Shown here one piece after another: positions 24,793-34,045 of a stretch of DNA of 64,000 bases. Below the pieces are notes generated by a model. It was not told the origin of the DNA. It was given only the letters and a program-made list of their open reading frames with translations, and ran no database searches. Positions within the stretch are counted from its first letter, which is position 1, and every line of letters starts with the position of its first letter. A program made the translations under genes and the position numbers. The stretch lies in the IMG/VR virus record IMGVR_UViG_3300027852_000033, positions 37,905 through 101,904 of that record; one strand, 5' to 3'. This stretch comes from a virus.

Positions 24793-27771
24793 GTGGCTAA
24801 TACAAAATCAGCTAGAGAATTACCAAAACCGGATACCTATAATATATATGATAAGGGGTACAAAACTGGCTCACAAATGAGTGTTTTTATAGGTCCTATA
24901 TGGCTCGAAGAAATCGTATCATTACAGTTAGATACAAGTTCATCAGACCAAGAGATATGGTCATATTCAAACCCCTATTTTGATAGATTAATGATAGGAC
25001 GATATAGAATAAGAGGATCTATTGGAGTAACATATACCGAGCCTGATTATTTATTGAGGGTAATAACCGAAGCTAGAGATATATCCATTCAGGATAATGA
25101 ATTATATGATATCATAAACAATAGAAAGAATGTATTTGAAAACACCTTGAAATACAGAATGATCACAGAAAAAGTATTACAAGGGGGATATGAGGAATCT
25201 ACAGATGCAGCAATAAACCGATATGTAGATCGTATATCTAGAGAAATAGAGCTTATGTCATTAAGTGGGGAGCGGCTGAACCCTAAACATTTTGAATTAA
25301 CTATAATTACTGGTAATATATATGACGATGAACAAGCTATAGAAATATTTGAGGATGCAAAAATAATAGGCACTGGCAAAATATCAGTAGTAGACGATAA
25401 TGCAATTTCGGAAATATATAGCTTTGTAGCTAAACGTAAACCCGACAGAAAAAAAGTGACTGAGTTACCTAATAAAATAGGATCACTATCTAAAAGAAAC
25501 CTTATTACAATGGCAAAAGAAGTAACTGAACAGCTTGCTGATAAATTATTAAGCCCGCCTGAAATGAAAGTAACTGCTCCAGAAATAAGAACTTCGGGTA
25601 TGTTTAATACTGATAAACTAGCAGTATGTGGATTGTTAAATCCTAGTACTAGAATGTATGGTAAAAAAGCATCATTTTGTGAATTAGTATGGTCATTTGA
25701 ATATCCTTTATATATACAAACCTCCCCAACCGGAATAGGTAATAATGGTAATATCAAATCAGTAACCGATCTTGCTATACTTGTAAAAACGATTGGGTCA
25801 GATGATCCGGGGGAAAGTAATAGCGAAGGTATAAAATTGGTTCCACCTAATGTTGAAGTGGATAATACAAATCAAAGAGGATTTAATAATTCGTTTGGTA
25901 GATTAATATCAATAGATAGAGAAAGAACATCTACTTTTACTTCCGCTGTAGCCCCTGTAGTTCCAGAAACTATAAGCAATACCATGGGTGGAACTGTAAT
26001 ATTGCCAAGGAAAAAAAGGAACGATTTTGAAATCGGGGCATTTATTCCCCCACAAATCGTAGATCCTACCGGATTTTCTTATACGGATACTGATCTGGAA
26101 GCGTTTACTGCAACCACATTATGGTGTGCACTTATGGGATTTAGATCAACAACTGGAAATAAAACGAATACCGATGGAACAGATACCCATGAACCAGGAG
26201 GTAAAGGGCAATATATAACAGAAATTGCACAACCAATCAACACATTTGCATATATTAATAGTGTCAAAGGAGAACTCAAAGGGGATGATTACATTTTAAA
26301 AATAGCTACTCCTATCTATATAGATCTGATGAATACTGCAAAATTAGGAGCAGGGTGTAAACCAACCGAAGAAGAAATACCAAGTGGTAAAATAGGTAAA
26401 GAAATTTGTATACCCGTAAATAAATCTAATGATGACATATCAATAACTGATAACGGAAAGGATTTATCAGGAGATGGGGATACAAATGAAGGAGAAGCCA
26501 ATGCTAAAATGATAAAGCTGGCGCGAGAGCTATCCTATAAAACTACTGTGGAAATTGCACCACTTGAGGAACCTAATGTAAATAACGATAAGGTCGCCCA
26601 TTTTTTTGAGATAGGAACTTTAATGGATAGTGGTATTTTAAGTACAGATTTTAGTAAATGCGTATATGTCGCTCCCTTTGTATATAAAGACTGGCCCGAT
26701 ATTACTGGTTTAACATGTGGAGGGCAGGGTAATCCCCATTCAGTTACTATAACTGAAATGGATGAATATCCTTCTGATCCTGACGAATATTTAGTGCATA
26801 TGTTACATACTTACAATCAAACCGATATTAGTTGTGATCTATCAGTAGACTATGATTGGACAATAAAAGATATAGCCGGATATAACCAAACTGGCCAGAC
26901 ATTTTCTATACATGGTGTATATTTTCTTACTCCGGAAAATCCAGATAAATACTATATAACTTGCCCAACTTGCGGCGATATAATATGGTATGGAAATCTA
27001 GAACTGGAAGGGTCAGGAGAAGATTATCCATTCAATGCAAAGGTAGTATGGTTTTTATCTATAATGCCACTATGGAGGGAAGAAAGTACAGAAAATGATA
27101 AAGTAAATTACATTCATGATCTTGAATCTGAAGCAGGCCGATATGTTGAATTATATAATATAACTAGATGCGATTCAAAGTTAATGGATTTAGAAGTATT
27201 AACAGTTAGAAGCGCCGGTTTATGGGATGCATTTATTACTAAATTAAAAGAACTTTTACATATAGATATAGAAACCCAAAGTTATTTATTTCCAGTTAAA
27301 GCAACTATGCAAAGAATAGCCGCTTTTTGTAGGGGGTATGCATTTAGAATTAGTTTGGATAGAATAGTTGATCAGCTTTTATTATGTGGTTTTAGCGAAA
27401 ATATTACTTCCGCAAGTGGAGGAATTATTAAACAACCAGCCGGGGGGTGGACTCTCGGTTCGGCATTAGATATAGCAATAACAGATGATAAAAATAAAGA
27501 TAAAATAGGGACTATTCGTAAGGAATTACATTCTATGGTAAATTCAGTATTTAAAACCGCCATGCAATTATCAGGGATACGAATAACTGAGGAAAAAAAG
27601 GGTGGAAAATACATAAGGGCCGAAATAGATATTTTAAGTCCTTCGCCCAGTATAGTATCTTGGGGCTTAACCGAGGAAGGATATGAAGAACTAAAGGAAT
27701 CTTCTTCGGAAAGCGATGAGGCGGGCGAACCGGAAGGTGAGACCCAAATAATTTTAGGAGGCTATGAATAA
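24793..27771 (+). CDS. Virion protein with an N-terminal tail-tube-like domain
   Basis: 992 aa, GTG start with GGAG RBS. N-terminal YKTGSQMSVFIG...GRYRIRGSIGV...FELTI...EIYSFVA resembles a tube fold; CPTC motif near the C-terminus. Confidence 0.6.
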   Translation: MANTKSARELPKPDTYNIYDKGYKTGSQMSVFIGPIWLEEIVSLQLDTSSSDQEIWSYSNPYFDRLMIGRYRIRGSIGVTYTEPDYLLRVITEARDISIQDNELYDIINNRKNVFENTLKYRMITEKVLQGGYEESTDAAINRYVDRISREIELMSLSGERLNPKHFELTIITGNIYDDEQAIEIFEDAKIIGTGKISVVDDNAISEIYSFVAKRKPDRKKVTELPNKIGSLSKRNLITMAKEVTEQLADKLLSPPEMKVTAPEIRTSGMFNTDKLAVCGLLNPSTRMYGKKASFCELVWSFEYPLYIQTSPTGIGNNGNIKSVTDLAILVKTIGSDDPGESNSEGIKLVPPNVEVDNTNQRGFNNSFGRLISIDRERTSTFTSAVAPVVPETISNTMGGTVILPRKKRNDFEIGAFIPPQIVDPTGFSYTDTDLEAFTATTLWCALMGFRSTTGNKTNTDGTDTHEPGGKGQYITEIAQPINTFAYINSVKGELKGDDYILKIATPIYIDLMNTAKLGAGCKPTEEEIPSGKIGKEICIPVNKSNDDISITDNGKDLSGDGDTNEGEANAKMIKLARELSYKTTVEIAPLEEPNVNNDKVAHFFEIGTLMDSGILSTDFSKCVYVAPFVYKDWPDITGLTCGGQGNPHSVTITEMDEYPSDPDEYLVHMLHTYNQTDISCDLSVDYDWTIKDIAGYNQTGQTFSIHGVYFLTPENPDKYYITCPTCGDIIWYGNLELEGSGEDYPFNAKVVWFLSIMPLWREESTENDKVNYIHDLESEAGRYVELYNITRCDSKLMDLEVLTVRSAGLWDAFITKLKELLHIDIETQSYLFPVKATMQRIAAFCRGYAFRISLDRIVDQLLLCGFSENITSASGGIIKQPAGGWTLGSALDIAITDDKNKDKIGTIRKELHSMVNSVFKTAMQLSGIRITEEKKGGKYIRAEIDILSPSPSIVSWGLTEEGYEELKESSSESDEAGEPEGETQIILGGYE

Positions 27772-29030
27772 TAATAATAAAATTATGAAAATTAATTTAT
27801 CCTATAAGACTGAATTAGACTTAAACAATAAACAAAAATCACAAATAAATCAAGCTACAGGTGGAGCCAGATTTGCATATAATTGGGGGCTTGGTAGAAG
27901 AATCAAATTGTATGAAGAAGAAAAGAAATCAACTAATGCAATAGATCAACACAGAGAACTCACTAAACTTAAAAAGACAGATTATGATTGGATGTATTTA
28001 TCATCAAAATGTGTATTTCAAGAAGCACTACGAGATTTAGATAAGGGTTTTGAAAACTTCTTTAGAAATGTTAAGCAAGGTAAGCCGCCAGGATTTCCTA
28101 AGTTTAAATCCAAACATAATTCTAAACAATCTTTTAGATTGAATGGTTCAATTCATGTATTTAATGATAAAATTCAGTTACCAAGATTAGGAAAGTTAAA
28201 TCTAAAAGAAAAAGGTTATATTCCAACTGATGAAAAAATACTGTCAGCGACAGTTTCTAAACATGCTAATCGTTATTTTGTATCAGTTAATATTGAAAAA
28301 GAAGTAGAATTACCACCTAATATTAGCAAAGAAACAGTTGGTATAGATTTAGGAATAAAAGATTTGGCAATAACTTCTGCCGGAATACATTTTGAAAATC
28401 CAAAGACCTATAAGAAGTTCCTAAAGAAACTAAAAAGAATGCAAAGACGGTTAAGTCGTAAGACAAGAGGAAGTAATAACAGAAGGAAACAGAAAGAAAA
28501 AGTTGCTAAATTACATTATAAAATATCAAATATACGAAAAGATAATATTCATAAGATGACAAGCTCTGTGGTGAAAGCAAAGCCACAAACTATAGTCATT
28601 GAGGATTTATCTGCTCGTAATATGATGAAAAATCATAAGTTAGCTCAGTCAATAGCAGATTCTTCTTTTGGAGAAATTAGAAGGCAGTTTGAATATAAAT
28701 GTAAATGGAATAACATCAATCTTGTTATTGCAAACAGGTGGTTCCCTTCTAGTAAATTGTGTTCAGGTTGTGGTTTCAAGAAAGAAGAATTAAAACTATC
28801 AGATAGAATTTATAAGTGTAATATTTGTGGTTTAAAAATTGATAGAGATTTTAATGCAGCACTTAATTTGAAGGAATATACCGCAAGTTCTGCGGGAATT
28901 AACGCCTCTGGAGAAGATAAAGCCCATGATAGTAATATCAGGTGGTCTTCGTTGAATGAGGAATTTAACAGCAAAACTAGTGAGTTAATAATATGCTAGT
29001 AATTCATAAGTTTAAAAGGACGAGCTATGA
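27761..29030 (+). mobile_element. Solo tnpB insertion (no tnpA) bounded by GCTATGA direct repeats
   Basis: GCTATGA at 27761-27767 and 29024-29030; no transposase gene nearby; removing one copy plus the insert restores a clean gene overlap. Confidence 0.65.
27764..28999 (+). CDS. tnpB: TnpB RNA-guided endonuclease (IS200/IS605/IS607 family) with intact RuvC
   Basis: N-terminal HTH (YKTELDLN...GGARFAYNWGL), GFPKFKSK, RuvC-I VGIDLGIKDLA, RuvC-II IVIEDL, zinc finger CSGC...CNIC, RuvC-III DRDFNAALNL. Alternative start ATG 27785. Confidence 0.95.
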   Translation: MNNNNKIMKINLSYKTELDLNNKQKSQINQATGGARFAYNWGLGRRIKLYEEEKKSTNAIDQHRELTKLKKTDYDWMYLSSKCVFQEALRDLDKGFENFFRNVKQGKPPGFPKFKSKHNSKQSFRLNGSIHVFNDKIQLPRLGKLNLKEKGYIPTDEKILSATVSKHANRYFVSVNIEKEVELPPNISKETVGIDLGIKDLAITSAGIHFENPKTYKKFLKKLKRMQRRLSRKTRGSNNRRKQKEKVAKLHYKISNIRKDNIHKMTSSVVKAKPQTIVIEDLSARNMMKNHKLAQSIADSSFGEIRRQFEYKCKWNNINLVIANRWFPSSKLCSGCGFKKEELKLSDRIYKCNICGLKIDRDFNAALNLKEYTASSAGINASGEDKAHDSNIRWSSLNEEFNSKTSELIIC

Positions 29031-29045
29031 TGCCTAAATCTAGTG
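28878..29045 (+). ncRNA. Putative TnpB omega-RNA: scaffold overlapping the tnpB 3' end plus a flanking guide
   Basis: Hairpins CCGCA-AGTTC-TGCGG and TGATA-GTAA-TATCA (GNRA loop) in the region encoding TASSAGINASGE, where omega-RNAs are normally encoded. Boundaries are estimates. Confidence 0.55.
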
Positions 29046-32000
29046 ACCCATCGGATATCAACAATAGTGTAAATGGGTTTAACATTACAAAATGTAGTGT
29101 AACAGAAGAAATAACACTATTTTTAGTTTTTCCAAACTTATCATATGGGATTATGGCAAATACATATGCCAAAAGTAACGATAGTACTAAAGATGTTAAA
29201 GGTAATAAAGAAGCTTCTCGCACAGTAGTGAACCCAACAAGTAACTATACCTATGATATTAACGATATTCCAATTGTAGATAAAGGCGCAGGATTAACTA
29301 CTACTATAATTGGAACTGAAACATTTTATATAGGGGCAGGAATAGGTAAAGAATTCTTTCTTACAAGTATGCCAATAAATAGTATATGTGCAAAGGCAAT
29401 TGTAACCGATCCTGCACTCTCTATTCCTATTCCACTAAAGATAGACCCATTGGTAGAAAATGAAGAAGTAGAAGCTATCAGAACCGCCGATAATTCTGTG
29501 TCTTTACAATGGGCACTATTGTCAATGGCTATGCAAGTAGTACAATCAAATCCGGGAACTGATATTAAGGGTAAAACCGGGGACGCTATAGTAACCGAAA
29601 TTATGCGGCTCGCTAGTAGTATGTCAAGTTATGATGGCTTTAAATGGACAGGGAATAGCGCCGATGATAATAGAGTAGAATTTTCTCATTTGGGATACCC
29701 TCTCGATTCAACAAGCGAACAATCAGAAGAGGCAGGACAAGACACCTTGAGGACATTATTTCAAACAGGCATGTCTACTCCTCTTCTCAAAGATGTATTT
29801 TCAAAACCCTCGGTTATTATCTTACACTCAGGTCCATCTGGTCCAAGATTATACCATTCTTCAACATTATCAGATGCAATTATGCCAACATTTACTATAA
29901 TTGGTAGAGATACCCCTCCTAAAATCGAATTTAGTAGTGTTATAAAATTACTTGATGTAGATGATATATCTGCAATACCGAATTGGTCAGAAAATATGGA
30001 AGCAGCAGAAGCTGCAGCTAAAGGTATATCTTCAGAAGAATTTGCAATACTATCAAATTCAGATAATAGTGTTGAACATATATTCCCATCAAGTCTTATA
30101 GTACCAATAGAAAATGGGGGATCAACTTTTAGACAATATAATGAGGGAACAGGATTACCAGAGGATAGAGATTATACTTTGATTACCCCTAGACCACCGG
30201 TATTTACTGCCGGTGAATATATGATAACTGCCGATAATAGCCCATTTATACCTATAACAAATTCATATTTTTATCCAATAGTAAAACATAAACCATATAC
30301 TTATGAAAATTGTAGAGTTTGTGGGGGGACTAAATCCCTTGGTTTTGAAACTTGTCTAACTTGTATAGAAAATCCAGGATATGTGAAAAATGATCAAGGA
30401 GATTATATAATTTGTCCTAACTGTATTGGGACCGGAATAGGTAAATTTATAGTTTGTCCAGTATGTAACTCGGAAAAGAAAAGTTATGTTTATAAGTGTG
30501 GTACCTGTGGGCATGACCTTGGGGAACAAATATTACTAAAAACACCGGATGATAATAATCCTAGATATGAACTTAAGACTGAAAATGGTGAAAATATACT
30601 TTATGTATATTTAAACAAGATTATTAAAACAACAGATATTATTATATACATGAACAATACCTATGTTCCAAACATTGCACAATTATATGATGATGCTTTT
30701 GTAGAAATATATACCATAAATGGAAATGTTATTAAATTTAATTACATGATAACGGGATATCCCGGATATAATGCAGGTAATTTACCAGATACTATAAATA
30801 GTATAGAAGTATATGAATCCGGGCCGGCTATGCAAACTTGTGAAGAATGTAAAATAGAAGTTAGCGATGTCAATTACCGACTTGGTTATGTTTTTAGTCC
30901 TACCGTTCCGGTAACAAGTTCACCAGATGTAACTGAATATATAACTGAATTATCAGATGTTCTTAACTTATCATATCGGTATCCTGATAATAATACTACG
31001 CCAGCAAAAGAAGGATTTAATTTACTTGGCTCGGCTTTATATATGTACAACGAGATTATAGTAAAGGCTCGTCCTTCTCTCAAATATATAGCCGGCCACG
31101 TTATCGATAAATGGAATACTATTGATAAAGAAAGTGTAGAAAATATAGTTTCTTCTACAATAGTATTACCAATATCAGGTACTGAAGTATCATCATGGGA
31201 AGAAACAAGTAAAAAACCTTGGCTACCTTGGAGAGGTGCGGCATGGGAGAGTAATGATAGTTTTTGGGATGACTATAATCCTGAAAATCATATAATGTTA
31301 TTGTCTAATCTTGAATATATAGGACAATCCATCCCAAGTGAATTGTCTATATTTGAGATGCCCCAAGCAACTGGATTAGCTGAGGAACAAAGCAAAGATT
31401 ATTTAGACAATATGATATCTAACTGTATTCCCTCTGGTTATGCTACAGTTATTAACAAAGATAATATACACAAAGTTTCAACCATAAGAGAAGTTACTTA
31501 TATAACTAATAACAATAGTAGTGGAAAATCGGTAGCTACTGATGGTATATCATTGGATAAAGAGGAAAAGATAGTTGCAGATACTATAAGCCCGATACAA
31601 CAATCTATACCTTTAAGTGTAGAAACTGGGGGGACAATCAAGGTAGGGGATTTTTTGAACGGTTTAATTAGTATACAGAATAAAGATAGTATATTAGCTA
31701 TTCAACAATTATTGCATACCCTACCAGAAATTGCGCGTGGTATTTCTAATATGGTAAAACAAACGTCAATAATAGTAAAAAATAATAAAGTAGTACCTAC
31801 TCCGGTATGGGAAGAAAGTGCCTCACCTATCATTACTACTTCATTTATGTGTATAACAGAGATGATGGATGAGATAACTACTAATTTTGATATTGGTGGT
31901 AGTGACAAAGAATATGGAGTTATAGAAAATTCATTGAAAGCTATAATAAATGATGAAAAACCTGTAGAATCTATTGTAGAATCAATAGATGTCATATTAG

Positions 32001-34045
32001 ATTTTGTTAATGATGTTATATTTTATTCTAAATTATGTCGTGACATAACTATGTATCGTAATAATGATAATAATGGCACGGTATTTCACTCTTATATAGA
32101 TAATGATATATCCCATGAGATAGAAATTGTAGATAGTTCTATGATATACGGAACATGGTTTTATAATATTAGAAAAACATATTTACTATGGATTAGTGCT
32201 TTTTCATTACTTGAAGCCATGGCTATACAAATATATAGTATTGCATGTTCATTCAAATATACTTTTTCAGCATTACCAGTAGTAGATGCAGAAAGCGGAG
32301 ATATTCCAACTCGTAAACTTGATATTGCATTATTCATAGCCGGCGATGATAAATGTCATCCAATAGTTGAATCATCTATAGAATTAACTGATACTTTAAA
32401 AAATGCAACATTAGGTATATGCCAAATCGCCGATATATTTGGCAGTAACACACTCCATTACGATATAGAAGGAAAGGTTCCAACTTTAGTAGACAGTGTT
32501 GCCGAAACTATCCCGTTAGTTGGGATGGGAGCAGCAGATAATTCAGAATTTGATGATCAACATGAACAGTTCTTTGTCACTACTGGAGAGCTTGCAAAAG
32601 AACCATATTCTACTATTATGCCGGTATTCGATACGAATTTTGACTATCTGCGAAATAGTATATCCACCAAGGATTTTATGATACGAGAAAGTGGTGAATT
32701 AAGATATATATCTAATGATGGTAATAGTATAAATAGTATAACCATGACAGAAGGGGACTATCCTAAAATATTTAATTCGATAACCAATGGTGGAAAGGTT
32801 ACTATAAATAGGATAGAGAGTGAAGATTTTACAGGTAAGATTAATTGTTCTATGGTTCTTCCATATCTCAGTAATATTAGACAAACACTTAGTCCTTCCT
32901 CTCCTATTGATGTAGATTTTAAAAGCGGCCAGCCTGATACAGTAGATATAACATGGACATATAATAATTTAGTATCGAGTCTCGACTCAATAATGACAAA
33001 TAAGACTAATGCAATGTTATCTATGGATAAAGTATCTGCAGAAATCAAAGGAATACTAAGTAACAAAACTGTACTTGATTTATTATACAATAACCCAGGT
33101 ACAATAAAATTTAACATACCTTTCCTTGGATTTGCAGATGCTAGTATTTCAACTACAAACAATATGTGCGAATCAGCTTTAATGGCATATGTATTCCACG
33201 CACTTGGATTTACTTTGAGGCCCGAGTTTTTATCAGGCGGTATAGTGAATAAACAAACTGTAGCACAAAGTATAGGTAATTTATTATGGTACAATGGTAC
33301 TTTTTCAAATCCAGAATGGGCATTGAATTATAATCTATTTCTATCGAAAAGGAGAGCATATATTGTAGCACTATATATTATATATAAATTATCTGAGATT
33401 CCATGGCAAGTAGGGGAATATGAAGTAAGTATATCTACAACCCCTGGGAGTGGGCCCGATTATGCTACAAAAGTATTTAATTGTTATGGGTTTGGAGCGA
33501 TGTTTGGTAGTGCAGCATATACTGCAGATGGCAGAGCCAATAATATCGTAAAAGGACAAAGAACAACATATATATCAAAAATGATACCCACTCTTGGTAT
33601 ATTACCTGTAACCGGAATATCAAATATGAGCATACATTTAACTGCGCCTATTGGTAGAGATATAACCGGCGATATAGGTTGTATGTCTATTATTGAGAAT
33701 AATACTATATATAGTCCGGTTACAAAAGATAAGGAATATAATACCTTTGTTTCTTATAACAAAGATAATAATGATATAATAGGATTATATAATAATGCGG
33801 CCGAAGCATTATTGGTTGGAGGGGAAAATGCAATAACTAATACAGGGAAAAATATATCAGATATGGTATTACTTTATGCTAATGGGAAATACCCGGCATC
33901 TAAGCGAGTAAGACTTAGTATAGGTGAATTTATATCGGGCGCGTTTAACCAATTATCTCCGGTATATCTCGCTAATAATATATCACCTTTTAAAACAACT
34001 ACTTCAATATTAGATGATTTTTATCTAAATATACATAAGATTTAA
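29027..34045 (+). CDS. Large putative virion protein with an internal multi-CxxC zinc-finger region
   Basis: 1672 aa in the tail operon; CRVCGG, CLTC, CPNCIGTG, CPVC, CGTCG clustered at about 30310-30510, and CEEC further on. Confidence 0.7.
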   Translation: MMPKSSDPSDINNSVNGFNITKCSVTEEITLFLVFPNLSYGIMANTYAKSNDSTKDVKGNKEASRTVVNPTSNYTYDINDIPIVDKGAGLTTTIIGTETFYIGAGIGKEFFLTSMPINSICAKAIVTDPALSIPIPLKIDPLVENEEVEAIRTADNSVSLQWALLSMAMQVVQSNPGTDIKGKTGDAIVTEIMRLASSMSSYDGFKWTGNSADDNRVEFSHLGYPLDSTSEQSEEAGQDTLRTLFQTGMSTPLLKDVFSKPSVIILHSGPSGPRLYHSSTLSDAIMPTFTIIGRDTPPKIEFSSVIKLLDVDDISAIPNWSENMEAAEAAAKGISSEEFAILSNSDNSVEHIFPSSLIVPIENGGSTFRQYNEGTGLPEDRDYTLITPRPPVFTAGEYMITADNSPFIPITNSYFYPIVKHKPYTYENCRVCGGTKSLGFETCLTCIENPGYVKNDQGDYIICPNCIGTGIGKFIVCPVCNSEKKSYVYKCGTCGHDLGEQILLKTPDDNNPRYELKTENGENILYVYLNKIIKTTDIIIYMNNTYVPNIAQLYDDAFVEIYTINGNVIKFNYMITGYPGYNAGNLPDTINSIEVYESGPAMQTCEECKIEVSDVNYRLGYVFSPTVPVTSSPDVTEYITELSDVLNLSYRYPDNNTTPAKEGFNLLGSALYMYNEIIVKARPSLKYIAGHVIDKWNTIDKESVENIVSSTIVLPISGTEVSSWEETSKKPWLPWRGAAWESNDSFWDDYNPENHIMLLSNLEYIGQSIPSELSIFEMPQATGLAEEQSKDYLDNMISNCIPSGYATVINKDNIHKVSTIREVTYITNNNSSGKSVATDGISLDKEEKIVADTISPIQQSIPLSVETGGTIKVGDFLNGLISIQNKDSILAIQQLLHTLPEIARGISNMVKQTSIIVKNNKVVPTPVWEESASPIITTSFMCITEMMDEITTNFDIGGSDKEYGVIENSLKAIINDEKPVESIVESIDVILDFVNDVIFYSKLCRDITMYRNNDNNGTVFHSYIDNDISHEIEIVDSSMIYGTWFYNIRKTYLLWISAFSLLEAMAIQIYSIACSFKYTFSALPVVDAESGDIPTRKLDIALFIAGDDKCHPIVESSIELTDTLKNATLGICQIADIFGSNTLHYDIEGKVPTLVDSVAETIPLVGMGAADNSEFDDQHEQFFVTTGELAKEPYSTIMPVFDTNFDYLRNSISTKDFMIRESGELRYISNDGNSINSITMTEGDYPKIFNSITNGGKVTINRIESEDFTGKINCSMVLPYLSNIRQTLSPSSPIDVDFKSGQPDTVDITWTYNNLVSSLDSIMTNKTNAMLSMDKVSAEIKGILSNKTVLDLLYNNPGTIKFNIPFLGFADASISTTNNMCESALMAYVFHALGFTLRPEFLSGGIVNKQTVAQSIGNLLWYNGTFSNPEWALNYNLFLSKRRAYIVALYIIYKLSEIPWQVGEYEVSISTTPGSGPDYATKVFNCYGFGAMFGSAAYTADGRANNIVKGQRTTYISKMIPTLGILPVTGISNMSIHLTAPIGRDITGDIGCMSIIENNTIYSPVTKDKEYNTFVSYNKDNNDIIGLYNNAAEALLVGGENAITNTGKNISDMVLLYANGKYPASKRVRLSIGEFISGAFNQLSPVYLANNISPFKTTTSILDDFYLNIHKI

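Follow-up and report, generated by a model that had tools for sequence, protein, structure and literature searches.

How a tnpB gene without a transposase came to sit exactly between two conserved genes of a phage, and what could keep it there, is the question raised by a locus of the IMG/VR virus record IMGVR_UViG_3300027852_000033. The record is linear, 101.9 kb long, and of 75% estimated completeness, and the stretch analyzed here (the window) comprises its bases 37905-101904, that is, 64,000 nucleotides. The analysis showed that a cassette carrying tnpB was inserted in the overlapping junction of two conserved syntenic genes, directly after the Shine-Dalgarno (SD) sequence AGGAG. The identity of the element, its insertion site, and the reconstruction of the empty site are firmly established. 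The best-supported mechanism would be that an RNA-guided nuclease cuts the empty junction and thereby brings about homing or retention of the cassette, which we consider rather probable on the grounds of sequence logic and the published properties of related elements.

The tnpB gene (27785-28999, + strand; stop codon at 28997-28999) encodes a protein of 404 amino acids (aa) with helix-turn-helix (HTH), OrfB_IS605 (RuvC), and zinc-ribbon TNB domains. The Pfam models PF12323, PF01385, and PF07282 matched this protein in the TnpB order, all above their cut-offs, and PHROG 506 matched it with an E value of 1e-124. The protein also matched ISDra2 TnpB (E 5e-74) and ISFba1 TnpB (PDB 8IAZ; E 3.5e-62); the AI-designed nuclease 9YYG scored slightly above ISDra2 TnpB, which was the best match among natural TnpB structures. 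The residues D188 (28346-28348), E273 (28601-28603), and D355 (28847-28849) aligned with D191, E278, and D361 of ISDra2 TnpB, which confirms an earlier reading of this DNA (the original prediction) that all three RuvC acidic residues are intact, and both CxxC pairs of the zinc finger are kept (CSGCG...CNICG). The ratio of nonsynonymous to synonymous substitution rates (dN/dS), which averages over the whole divergence from the relatives, was 0.12 against L002 (82% identical), the closest relative with DNA available, and 0.21 against L004, indicating purifying selection. In the relative L003 (84% identical) an IS607 serine recombinase with a Resolvase domain is encoded directly upstream of tnpB, and in L003 and dozens of more distant loci a Resolvase-domain open reading frame (ORF) with an N-terminal HTH ends at the tnpB start. 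By these comparisons, the window TnpB is of the IS607 type. The close TnpB relatives are about 400-415 aa long and all start with MKINL, which corresponds to ATG 27785 in the window, and the Pfam HTH model begins at the same residue. These two features point to ATG 27785 as the native start of tnpB, and to the seven in-frame codons MNNNNKI that precede it (27764-27784, + strand), and that are absent from all relatives, as an extension peculiar to this copy.

The insert is 1263 bp long and lies between two copies of GCTATGA, at 27761-27767 and 29024-29030, as the original prediction had noticed. The left copy (+ strand) directly follows the junction SD sequence AGGAG (27756-27760, + strand), which equals the published target-adjacent motif (TAM) of IS607-type TnpB proteins, while AAAGGACGAGCTATGATG precedes the downstream 1672-aa ORF (29027). 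When the boundaries are fixed independently, by the end of the TAM at 27760 and by the family-conserved right end at 29023, the chance of a 7/7 repeat match at this base composition is about 6e-5, or about 3e-3 by our own estimate if the ATG is taken as functionally required. The left repeat restores the Gly-Tyr of the upstream protein and supplies ATG 27764; more fully, GCTATGAATAA at the start of the insert rebuilds the upstream Gly-Tyr-Glu-stop together with an in-frame ATG for tnpB. The 992-aa upstream ORF of the occupied allele thus ends with the codons ATT TTA GGA GGC TAT GAA TAA (stop at 27769-27771), its protein ends with ILGGYE-stop, and its last two ancestral codons (D, A) are displaced. 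Deletion of one repeat copy together with the intervening DNA yields TTAGGAGGCTATGATGCCTAA, and its translation in the upstream frame is L-G-G-Y-D-A-stop. The bases TAT GAT GCC TAA (29026-29037) are the orphaned original end of the upstream gene.

To assess this reconstruction, the junction was compared with homologs of the two neighboring genes, which are the upstream conserved phage gene of 992 aa, taken from the ORF list (24793-27771, + strand; homologs P0122-P0125 and L083), and the downstream conserved phage gene of 1672 aa (29027-34045, + strand), which the insert separates from its own SD sequence. In seven cassette-free relatives the upstream protein ends with GGYDA, GGYDV, or GGYTE. 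The C-terminus ILGGYDA, which the original prediction had derived for the empty site, is found in P0122 (61% identical) and two of its cluster mates, ILGGYDV in two further cluster mates, and ELGGYDA in P0123 (about 35% identical). In L083, a 150-kb IMG/VR phage, the 992-aa homolog ends with LGGYTE and its TGA overlaps the next ATG (ATGA); the next gene encodes a 1966-aa homolog of the 1672-aa protein, and no tnpB lies between them. The twenty-odd members of the 1672-aa family share the N-terminus M-x(3-6)-DPSDI.N.INGF, which matches the window start at 29027/29030. Together, the C-termini of the relatives, the overlap in L083, and the N-termini of the 1672-aa family show that the ancestral state was an overlapping, translationally coupled junction, as had been proposed, and that every codon of the reconstruction is right. 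Of the two start codons in the ATGATG of the empty allele, the second, located 5 nt after GGAGG, is the likelier start of the 1672-aa gene. The label "essential tail genes," which had been given to the two neighbors, found no annotation to stand on: their proteins had no significant match in Pfam or PHROGs and none by PDB profile search or in the ESM Atlas, and an AlphaFold model of the conserved N-terminal 530 aa of a flanking protein had a mean predicted local distance difference test score of 44.5, too low for a fold search.

The right boundary of the element was defined by comparison with its relatives. The sequence after tnpB is conserved across them up to ...(G)GAGAACGG and unrelated beyond, and because the conservation stops at this point, it marks the right end of the element. 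In a gapless alignment, ttcataagtttaaaagaacgg|tttt of L002 corresponds to ttcataagtttaaaaggacga|gctatga of the window, which places the boundary at 29023|29024, give or take about 1 nt. The 200 nt before this boundary fold into stems, which are kept in the window and for which covariation was seen in a set of 16 relatives that includes it. The predicted guide-RNA scaffold (28868-29023, + strand), also known as right-end element RNA (reRNA) or omegaRNA, overlaps the 3′ end of tnpB; its start is approximate and was set by analogy with ISFba1. It consists of a conserved 5′ hairpin (28880-28896, + strand), a RAGATH-18-like core (28905-28963, + strand; Rfam RF03064), and a 60-nt 3′ flank (+ strand) that extends up to 29023 and ends with AAAGGACGA, where the family consensus is ...GAACGG. 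A focused Rfam search gave a full-length match to RF03064 with 31.1 bits (E 3.8e-4), while RAGATH-18 was matched neither in a wider search nor in the relatives (38-kb search). The guide RNA of ISFba1 is composed of a 5′ flank, the RAGATH-18 motif, a 64-nt 3′ flank, and then the guide (PMC11061315), and the distance from the motif to the boundary in the window, 60 nt, is close to the length of that flank.

The published properties of IS607-type TnpB proteins allow the target of the cassette to be predicted. Of 22 strains, 18 have the TAM AGGAG and the others GAGGG, and in ISFba1 every base of the TAM is needed, while a single mismatch within target positions 1-13 is enough to impair or abolish cutting (PMC11061315). 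According to a 2026 review, IS607 elements have GG as their terminus, and their insertion takes place at a GG or after one (PMC13565253); the target at this locus contains GG (AGGAGG). The predicted 20-nt guide template GCTATGATGCCTAAATCTAG (29024-29043, + strand) includes the right GCTATGA (29024-29030) and has no second occurrence in the window. AGGAG (27756-27760) abuts GCTATGATGCC... in the reconstructed empty site, the beginning of GCTATGATGCCTAAATCTAG, the 20 nt that follow the right end. At the right junction of the occupied allele, the bases before the guide-matching site are GACGA and do not form a TAM, and at the left junction the guide match after AGGAG ends at 7 nt. These data suggest that the empty site would offer a TAM with a perfect target, and that both occupied junctions would be protected. 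By the logic of the sequence, the recognition site would be the insert-free allele and would be disrupted by the insert, as is expected of a homing endonuclease gene; the insert was absent from 7 of the 7 relatives found, which are only 35-61% identical.

The cassette, made up of a 24-nt leader, the IS607-type tnpB, and its RAGATH-18-like guide-RNA scaffold, lacks the means of moving as a transposon. Neither the interval 27771-27785 nor any other part of the insert holds an ORF for a serine-recombinase TnpA with a MerR-like HTH at its N-terminus, while the relatives L003 and L009 have TnpA with a Resolvase domain, and only 24 nt precede tnpB in the cassette compared with a 65-75-nt left end with a promoter in the relatives. 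The earlier statement that there is no tnpA and almost no left end is thus upheld. Compared with an autonomous IS607 element, the cassette has no left end, and its right end is GGACGA(G) instead of GAACGG. Because both tnpA and the left end are missing, the cassette cannot transpose by itself. Solo copies are also found elsewhere: the nearest relatives L002, L004, and L005 are tnpA-less and lie in phage-like contigs, with tnpB of L005 located between a tail-fiber-like gene and a portal gene, and 61 of the 71 relatives in IMG/VR have no IS607 TnpA within 3 kb (Y1 transposases were not searched for). The window copy is the most stripped-down form among those compared.

The insertion has left both neighbors with translation signals. 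In the right end, a surrogate SD sequence AAGGA (29016-29020, + strand) lies 6 nt before ATG 29027 and 9 nt before ATG 29030, which supports the proposal that the end of the element supplies a replacement ribosome-binding site; the relatives likewise contain GGAG in the right end. The tip of the right end is AAGAACGG (AAGAA) in L002 and AAGGACGA in the window, where an A-to-G change creates AAGGA. This change and the final G-to-A hit two bases that are invariant in the relatives: the last six bases of the scaffold are GGACGA in the window and GAACGG in all relatives collected by that motif. Among the 71 IMG/VR relatives, the right ends were too heterogeneous for a boundary defined by a motif, and only L085 and L086 share GAACGG.

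Expression of tnpB appears to depend on the upstream gene. In a promoter scan, the cassette and the DNA before it were not enriched in matches (11 found versus 9.8 expected), and no +-strand terminator was found after tnpB, so that read-through from the upstream gene is likely. Either ATG 27764 or ATG 27785 could be reached by termination-reinitiation. The best promoter-like match, TTAACA-16-AATAAT (10/12; 28965-28992), is located in the 3′ flank, is oriented toward the 1672-aa gene, and has no conserved counterpart in L002.

We propose that tnpB would have no promoter of its own and would be transcribed with the operon and translated by coupling, from ATG 27764 or 27785. TnpB would bind the scaffold RNA, the 3′ extension of which would copy 29024-29043, and the complex would recognize AGGAG followed by GCTATGATGCCTAAATCTAG, a combination expected only in cassette-free genomes. 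The targets could be co-infecting relatives, or sister copies from which recombination between the 7-bp repeats had removed the cassette. Cutting of such a target, followed by repair from an occupied copy, would lead to the cassette being copied in (homing) or restored (retention). Since recombination between the repeats would regenerate the perfect TAM and target, the nuclease of a sister genome could cut the product, and retention could be self-enforced without any transposase. The spread of TnpB elements by the cutting of empty copies, independently of TnpA, has been shown in plasmids and proposed for phages (PMC11870625, as it is cited in PMC13565253).

Several observations weigh against homing or retention. 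ATG 27764 is located only 2-3 nt after the SD sequence (GGAGG), which is a short spacing, and ATG 27785 is located 13 nt after the upstream stop without an SD sequence, and the expression of tnpB may be weak. The match of the scaffold core to RAGATH-18 is below the Rfam gathering score (31.1 versus 44.9 bits), and the two changes at invariant scaffold positions could impair the RNA. The presence of AGGAG is only partly independent evidence, because this sequence is expected as a ribosome-binding site regardless of TnpB. The seven insert-free relatives are only 35-61% identical in the neighboring protein, and, compared at this protein level, the present guide may match none of them. The comparison with related phages that the original prediction had called for came out in its favor as far as these seven relatives agree with the reconstruction, while no near-identical cassette-free genome was found. 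An exact search of IMG/VR for the reconstructed empty site gave no match, and the contigs of the source metagenome contained no joint skipping the insert, although contigs drop rare variants.

Some of the same observations are expected if the cassette is a stranded relic, that is, the remnant of an IS607-type insertion or of illegitimate recombination in which TnpB and its RNA are now inert. Such a relic would persist as it cannot excise and is nearly neutral, with the frames and the ribosome-binding signals of both neighbors preserved. The absence of tnpA, of a left end, and of promoter enrichment would fit with this explanation, as would the two changes in the otherwise invariant last six bases of the scaffold, the single copy of tnpB in the 102-kb record, and the lack of an empty allele in the source-sample contigs. 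However, the ORF has its full length, none of the catalytic and zinc-binding residues is missing, the stems of the scaffold are kept, and the dN/dS values of 0.12-0.21, averages over the whole divergence, were obtained against relatives that are also solo and phage-borne. The exact fit of TAM and guide to the empty site is also not a feature that decay would maintain. An inert relic, the main rival to homing or retention, seems unlikely to us, while deserving serious consideration.

A further explanation shares the TAM and guide layout with homing and differs in its outcome: TnpB would serve as a weapon, cutting cassette-free related phages in co-infection chiefly in order to destroy them, to the benefit of the carrier phage, while the cassette would be copied rarely or not at all. 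Competitors that are too divergent for gene conversion can be killed by phage homing nucleases (PMC13565253), and the identity of 35-61% in the neighboring protein of the known relatives would be in line with such a role. On the other hand, the near-perfect match needed at positions 1-13 (PMC11061315) would restrict cutting to very close relatives that are capable of repair, and the UvsX-like recombinase of the window favors recombinational repair, which makes a pure weapon quite improbable. That the protein is a domesticated RNA-guided regulator, akin to the TldRs, repressors that resemble TnpB without being active nucleases, and would tune the 1672-aa gene by binding either the region where this gene starts or the junction at which it is itself encoded, is hardly credible, because TldRs are nuclease-dead while D188, E273, and D355 are intact here, the guide-matching site of the occupied genome has no TAM, and the protein, which is of full length, has active nucleases as its nearest matches, even though the guide template coincides with the region in which translation of the downstream gene begins and phage-borne TnpB-derived repressors are known (bioRxiv 10.1101/2023.11.30.569447).

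The cassette can be compared with several known systems. One is the ISFba1-type IS607 TnpB with its RAGATH-18-derived reRNA (Ren et al., Cell Res 2024, PMC11061315; 8IAZ), which is a homologous TnpB. In both, a RAGATH-18-like core and about 60 nt of 3′ flank lead up to the guide, with AGGAG directly 5′ of the guide-matching sequence, and the relative L003 carries an IS607 serine recombinase upstream, as in the ISFba1 type. The cassette differs in lacking tnpA and the left end, in a scaffold that overlaps the end of the tnpB coding sequence instead of lying downstream, in a right end that is not GG, in a RAGATH-18 match below the gathering score, and in its location in a phage operon junction, where it depends on the expression signals of its neighbors. 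The TnpB-omegaRNA of ISDra2 from the IS200/IS605 family (Karvelis et al. 2021, PMC8612924; PDB 8BF8/8EXA/8H1J) has the same catalytic triad, a guide RNA that comes from the right end and overlaps the ORF, and the vacated site as its target (restorative homing, bioRxiv 10.1101/2023.03.14.532601). In contrast to the cassette, ISDra2 has a Y1 (HUH) TnpA, the TAM TTGAT, and hairpin ends, while the relatives of the cassette have a serine recombinase as partner, its TAM is G-rich, and it lacks any transposase that could create empty sites. The cassette also resembles the free-standing homing endonuclease genes of T-even phages (Seg, Mob; intronless homing), in that a nuclease gene which is absent from relatives lies between two conserved genes in a manner compatible with their expression, and in that its spread would be expected in co-infection by cutting and repair from the carrier (PMC13565253). 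Unlike Seg and Mob, its recognition would be by an RNA guide and a 5-nt motif rather than by protein, and self would be told from non-self by the presence of the insert, as in intron homing, and not by substitutions in a nearby gene. The IS605 plasmid gene drive (PMC11870625), described under the name of transposon non-restorative homing in PMC13565253, is alike in that its spread relies on TnpB cutting the orthologous empty site in a further copy of the replicon and not on transposition; that case is experimental and concerns plasmids, while the phage case is read from sequence only.

The element type, its TAM, and the concept of homing have already been described, and solo copies are common. 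What the locus adds is an example, along with family-level statistics, and not a new mechanism. The empty site, the TAM, the guide, and the self-protection of a transposase-less TnpB can all be read here from the sequence and checked against relatives, which makes the proposed "non-restorative homing" of OMEGA nucleases between co-infecting phages directly testable. Moreover, the locus illustrates how the G-rich TAM of IS607-type TnpB proteins bears on their biology: this TAM is at once the ribosome-binding site, for which the right end provides a replacement, so that insertions in tightly coupled operons can be nearly harmless.

The relatives suggest that landing before start codons is a habit of this family. 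An ATG opening an ORF of at least 50 aa was found within 12 nt of the right end in 23 of 69 cases, compared with 6.4% of random positions (p = 2e-11), and the distance from the right end to the ATG in such cases was 2-11 nt; by a looser start-codon criterion, the proportions were 51% against 32%. In the main clade GGAG is located in the right end, 5 nt before the tip, while this feature is weak in the phage subclade. Because start codons are enriched after the right ends and these contain GGAG, the elements tend to sit between a ribosome-binding site and a start codon, bringing a substitute site with them. The left flanks of the tnpA-bearing relatives end in (A)GGG. No link between the AGGAG TAM and ribosome-binding sites was found in the literature searched. 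Tentatively, these elements could be regarded as a clade of IS607-type TnpB elements built for life inside operons. Jointly with this still doubtful idea, the target motif would be the SD sequence itself, so that the elements would land between the ribosome-binding site and the start codon; the first ORF of the element would take over the captured site, and the right end GGAG-AACGG would provide the displaced gene with a surrogate. The phage copies would then have shed tnpA and the left end and would move only by RNA-guided homing in co-infection, and here the 7-bp repeat and the recoded leader would also patch the overlapping C-terminus of the upstream protein.

The origin of the 7-bp repeat was considered separately. 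IS607 recombination duplicates only a 2-bp core, and IS200/IS605 transposition duplicates nothing; therefore, the repeat needs another cause. Two readings, which do not exclude each other, are available. One is a single crossover of the target with a circle containing the right-end/leader joint ...GACGA|GCTATGAAT, after which the shared 7 bp would stand on either side, as is the case here; IS607 elements are known to pass through double-stranded circles (PMC13565253). The other is selection, as only inserts beginning with GC TAT keep LGGY, which is invariant at the upstream C-terminus in all relatives.

The 23-nt leader of tnpB, of which the seven extra codons are part, had been described as a short (AAT)n linker. 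ATG 27764 is indeed in frame with tnpB via AAT AAT AAT AAT AAA ATT, but the leader is not a product of simple (AAT)n slippage, because 30 nt, CTATGAATAATAATAATAAAATTATGAAAA (27762-27791), are shared with the 5′ end of another gene from the same marine metagenome. In the contig of this gene, referred to here as gene X, ...AATAAGGAGTGTTT / ...GAAACAATAAGGAGTGTTT precedes the shared 30 nt, and ATTTACTCACAATAGTACTGCTATTTATAG follows. The ORF of gene X starts with MNNNNKIMKNLLTIVLLFI, which is signal-peptide-like, behind an AGGAG of its own. The estimated depth of the contig was about 27x compared with 17x for the phage, and the contig was not found in the record of the phage itself, in IMG/VR, or in GTDB genomes. 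It may be that tnpB was fused to the leader by deletion or recombination at the shared ATGAAAA.

Other features were observed at the 5′ side of the relatives. In several phage-borne relatives a small ORF is located directly upstream (L002:825-971, L085:2838-2999, L004:3810-3986, L005:3828-4004, L003:77-244), with a stop that overlaps or abuts the start of tnpB (or tnpA). Its product is ribbon-helix-helix-like in L002, L085, L032, L042, and L044, and an XRE-type HTH protein in L004, while in L003 and L005 it is a conserved protein of 55-58 aa with the motif EL.EVPTV.EFQK and without annotation. These small ORFs may encode regulators belonging to the elements. Promoter-like sequences TTGACA...TATAAT precede the small ORF in L003, L004, and L005, and left boundaries of L002, L004, and L005 placed right after the AGGAG of the small ORF were withdrawn, as the promoter-like sequences in L003, L004, and L005 lie further upstream. 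In the main IS607 clade (L008-L081), many loci contain a degraded tnpA of 50-140 aa, in which the C-terminal ...EKIKQCVEQAMKEEE is kept, next to an intact tnpB, which is consistent with the published 30% share of pseudo-TnpA (PMC11061315). In L057 (371-3446), tnpB lies inside an array of at least six tRNA genes, and the right-end tip TTTCATAGAACGG is present twice, 26 nt apart.

The setting of the cassette is that of a large tailed phage, judging by the window proteins, which include major-head-protein-like proteins, one protein matching a tail sheath, and a UvsX-like recombinase, alongside the products of several giant ORFs in a row. A crAss-like phage was ruled out by the tail-sheath match, and an IStron was ruled out as the cassette has neither a group I intron nor room for one. 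The GC content is 31-38% throughout the window, and the insert is inconspicuous in a 2-kb composition profile. When GenBank phages were compared with the flanking DNA and proteins, tnpB was the only match, and in the scans of IMG/VR single-protein queries gave nothing, while alignment-based queries found the relatives. The sole public run with this sequence is a marine metagenome, probably its own source. The 992-aa gene (24793) has a GTG start in one public gene call (V1, P0121) and M1 in another (P0152); the two are otherwise identical, and the phage has thus been assembled at least twice (JGI/IMG and ENA).

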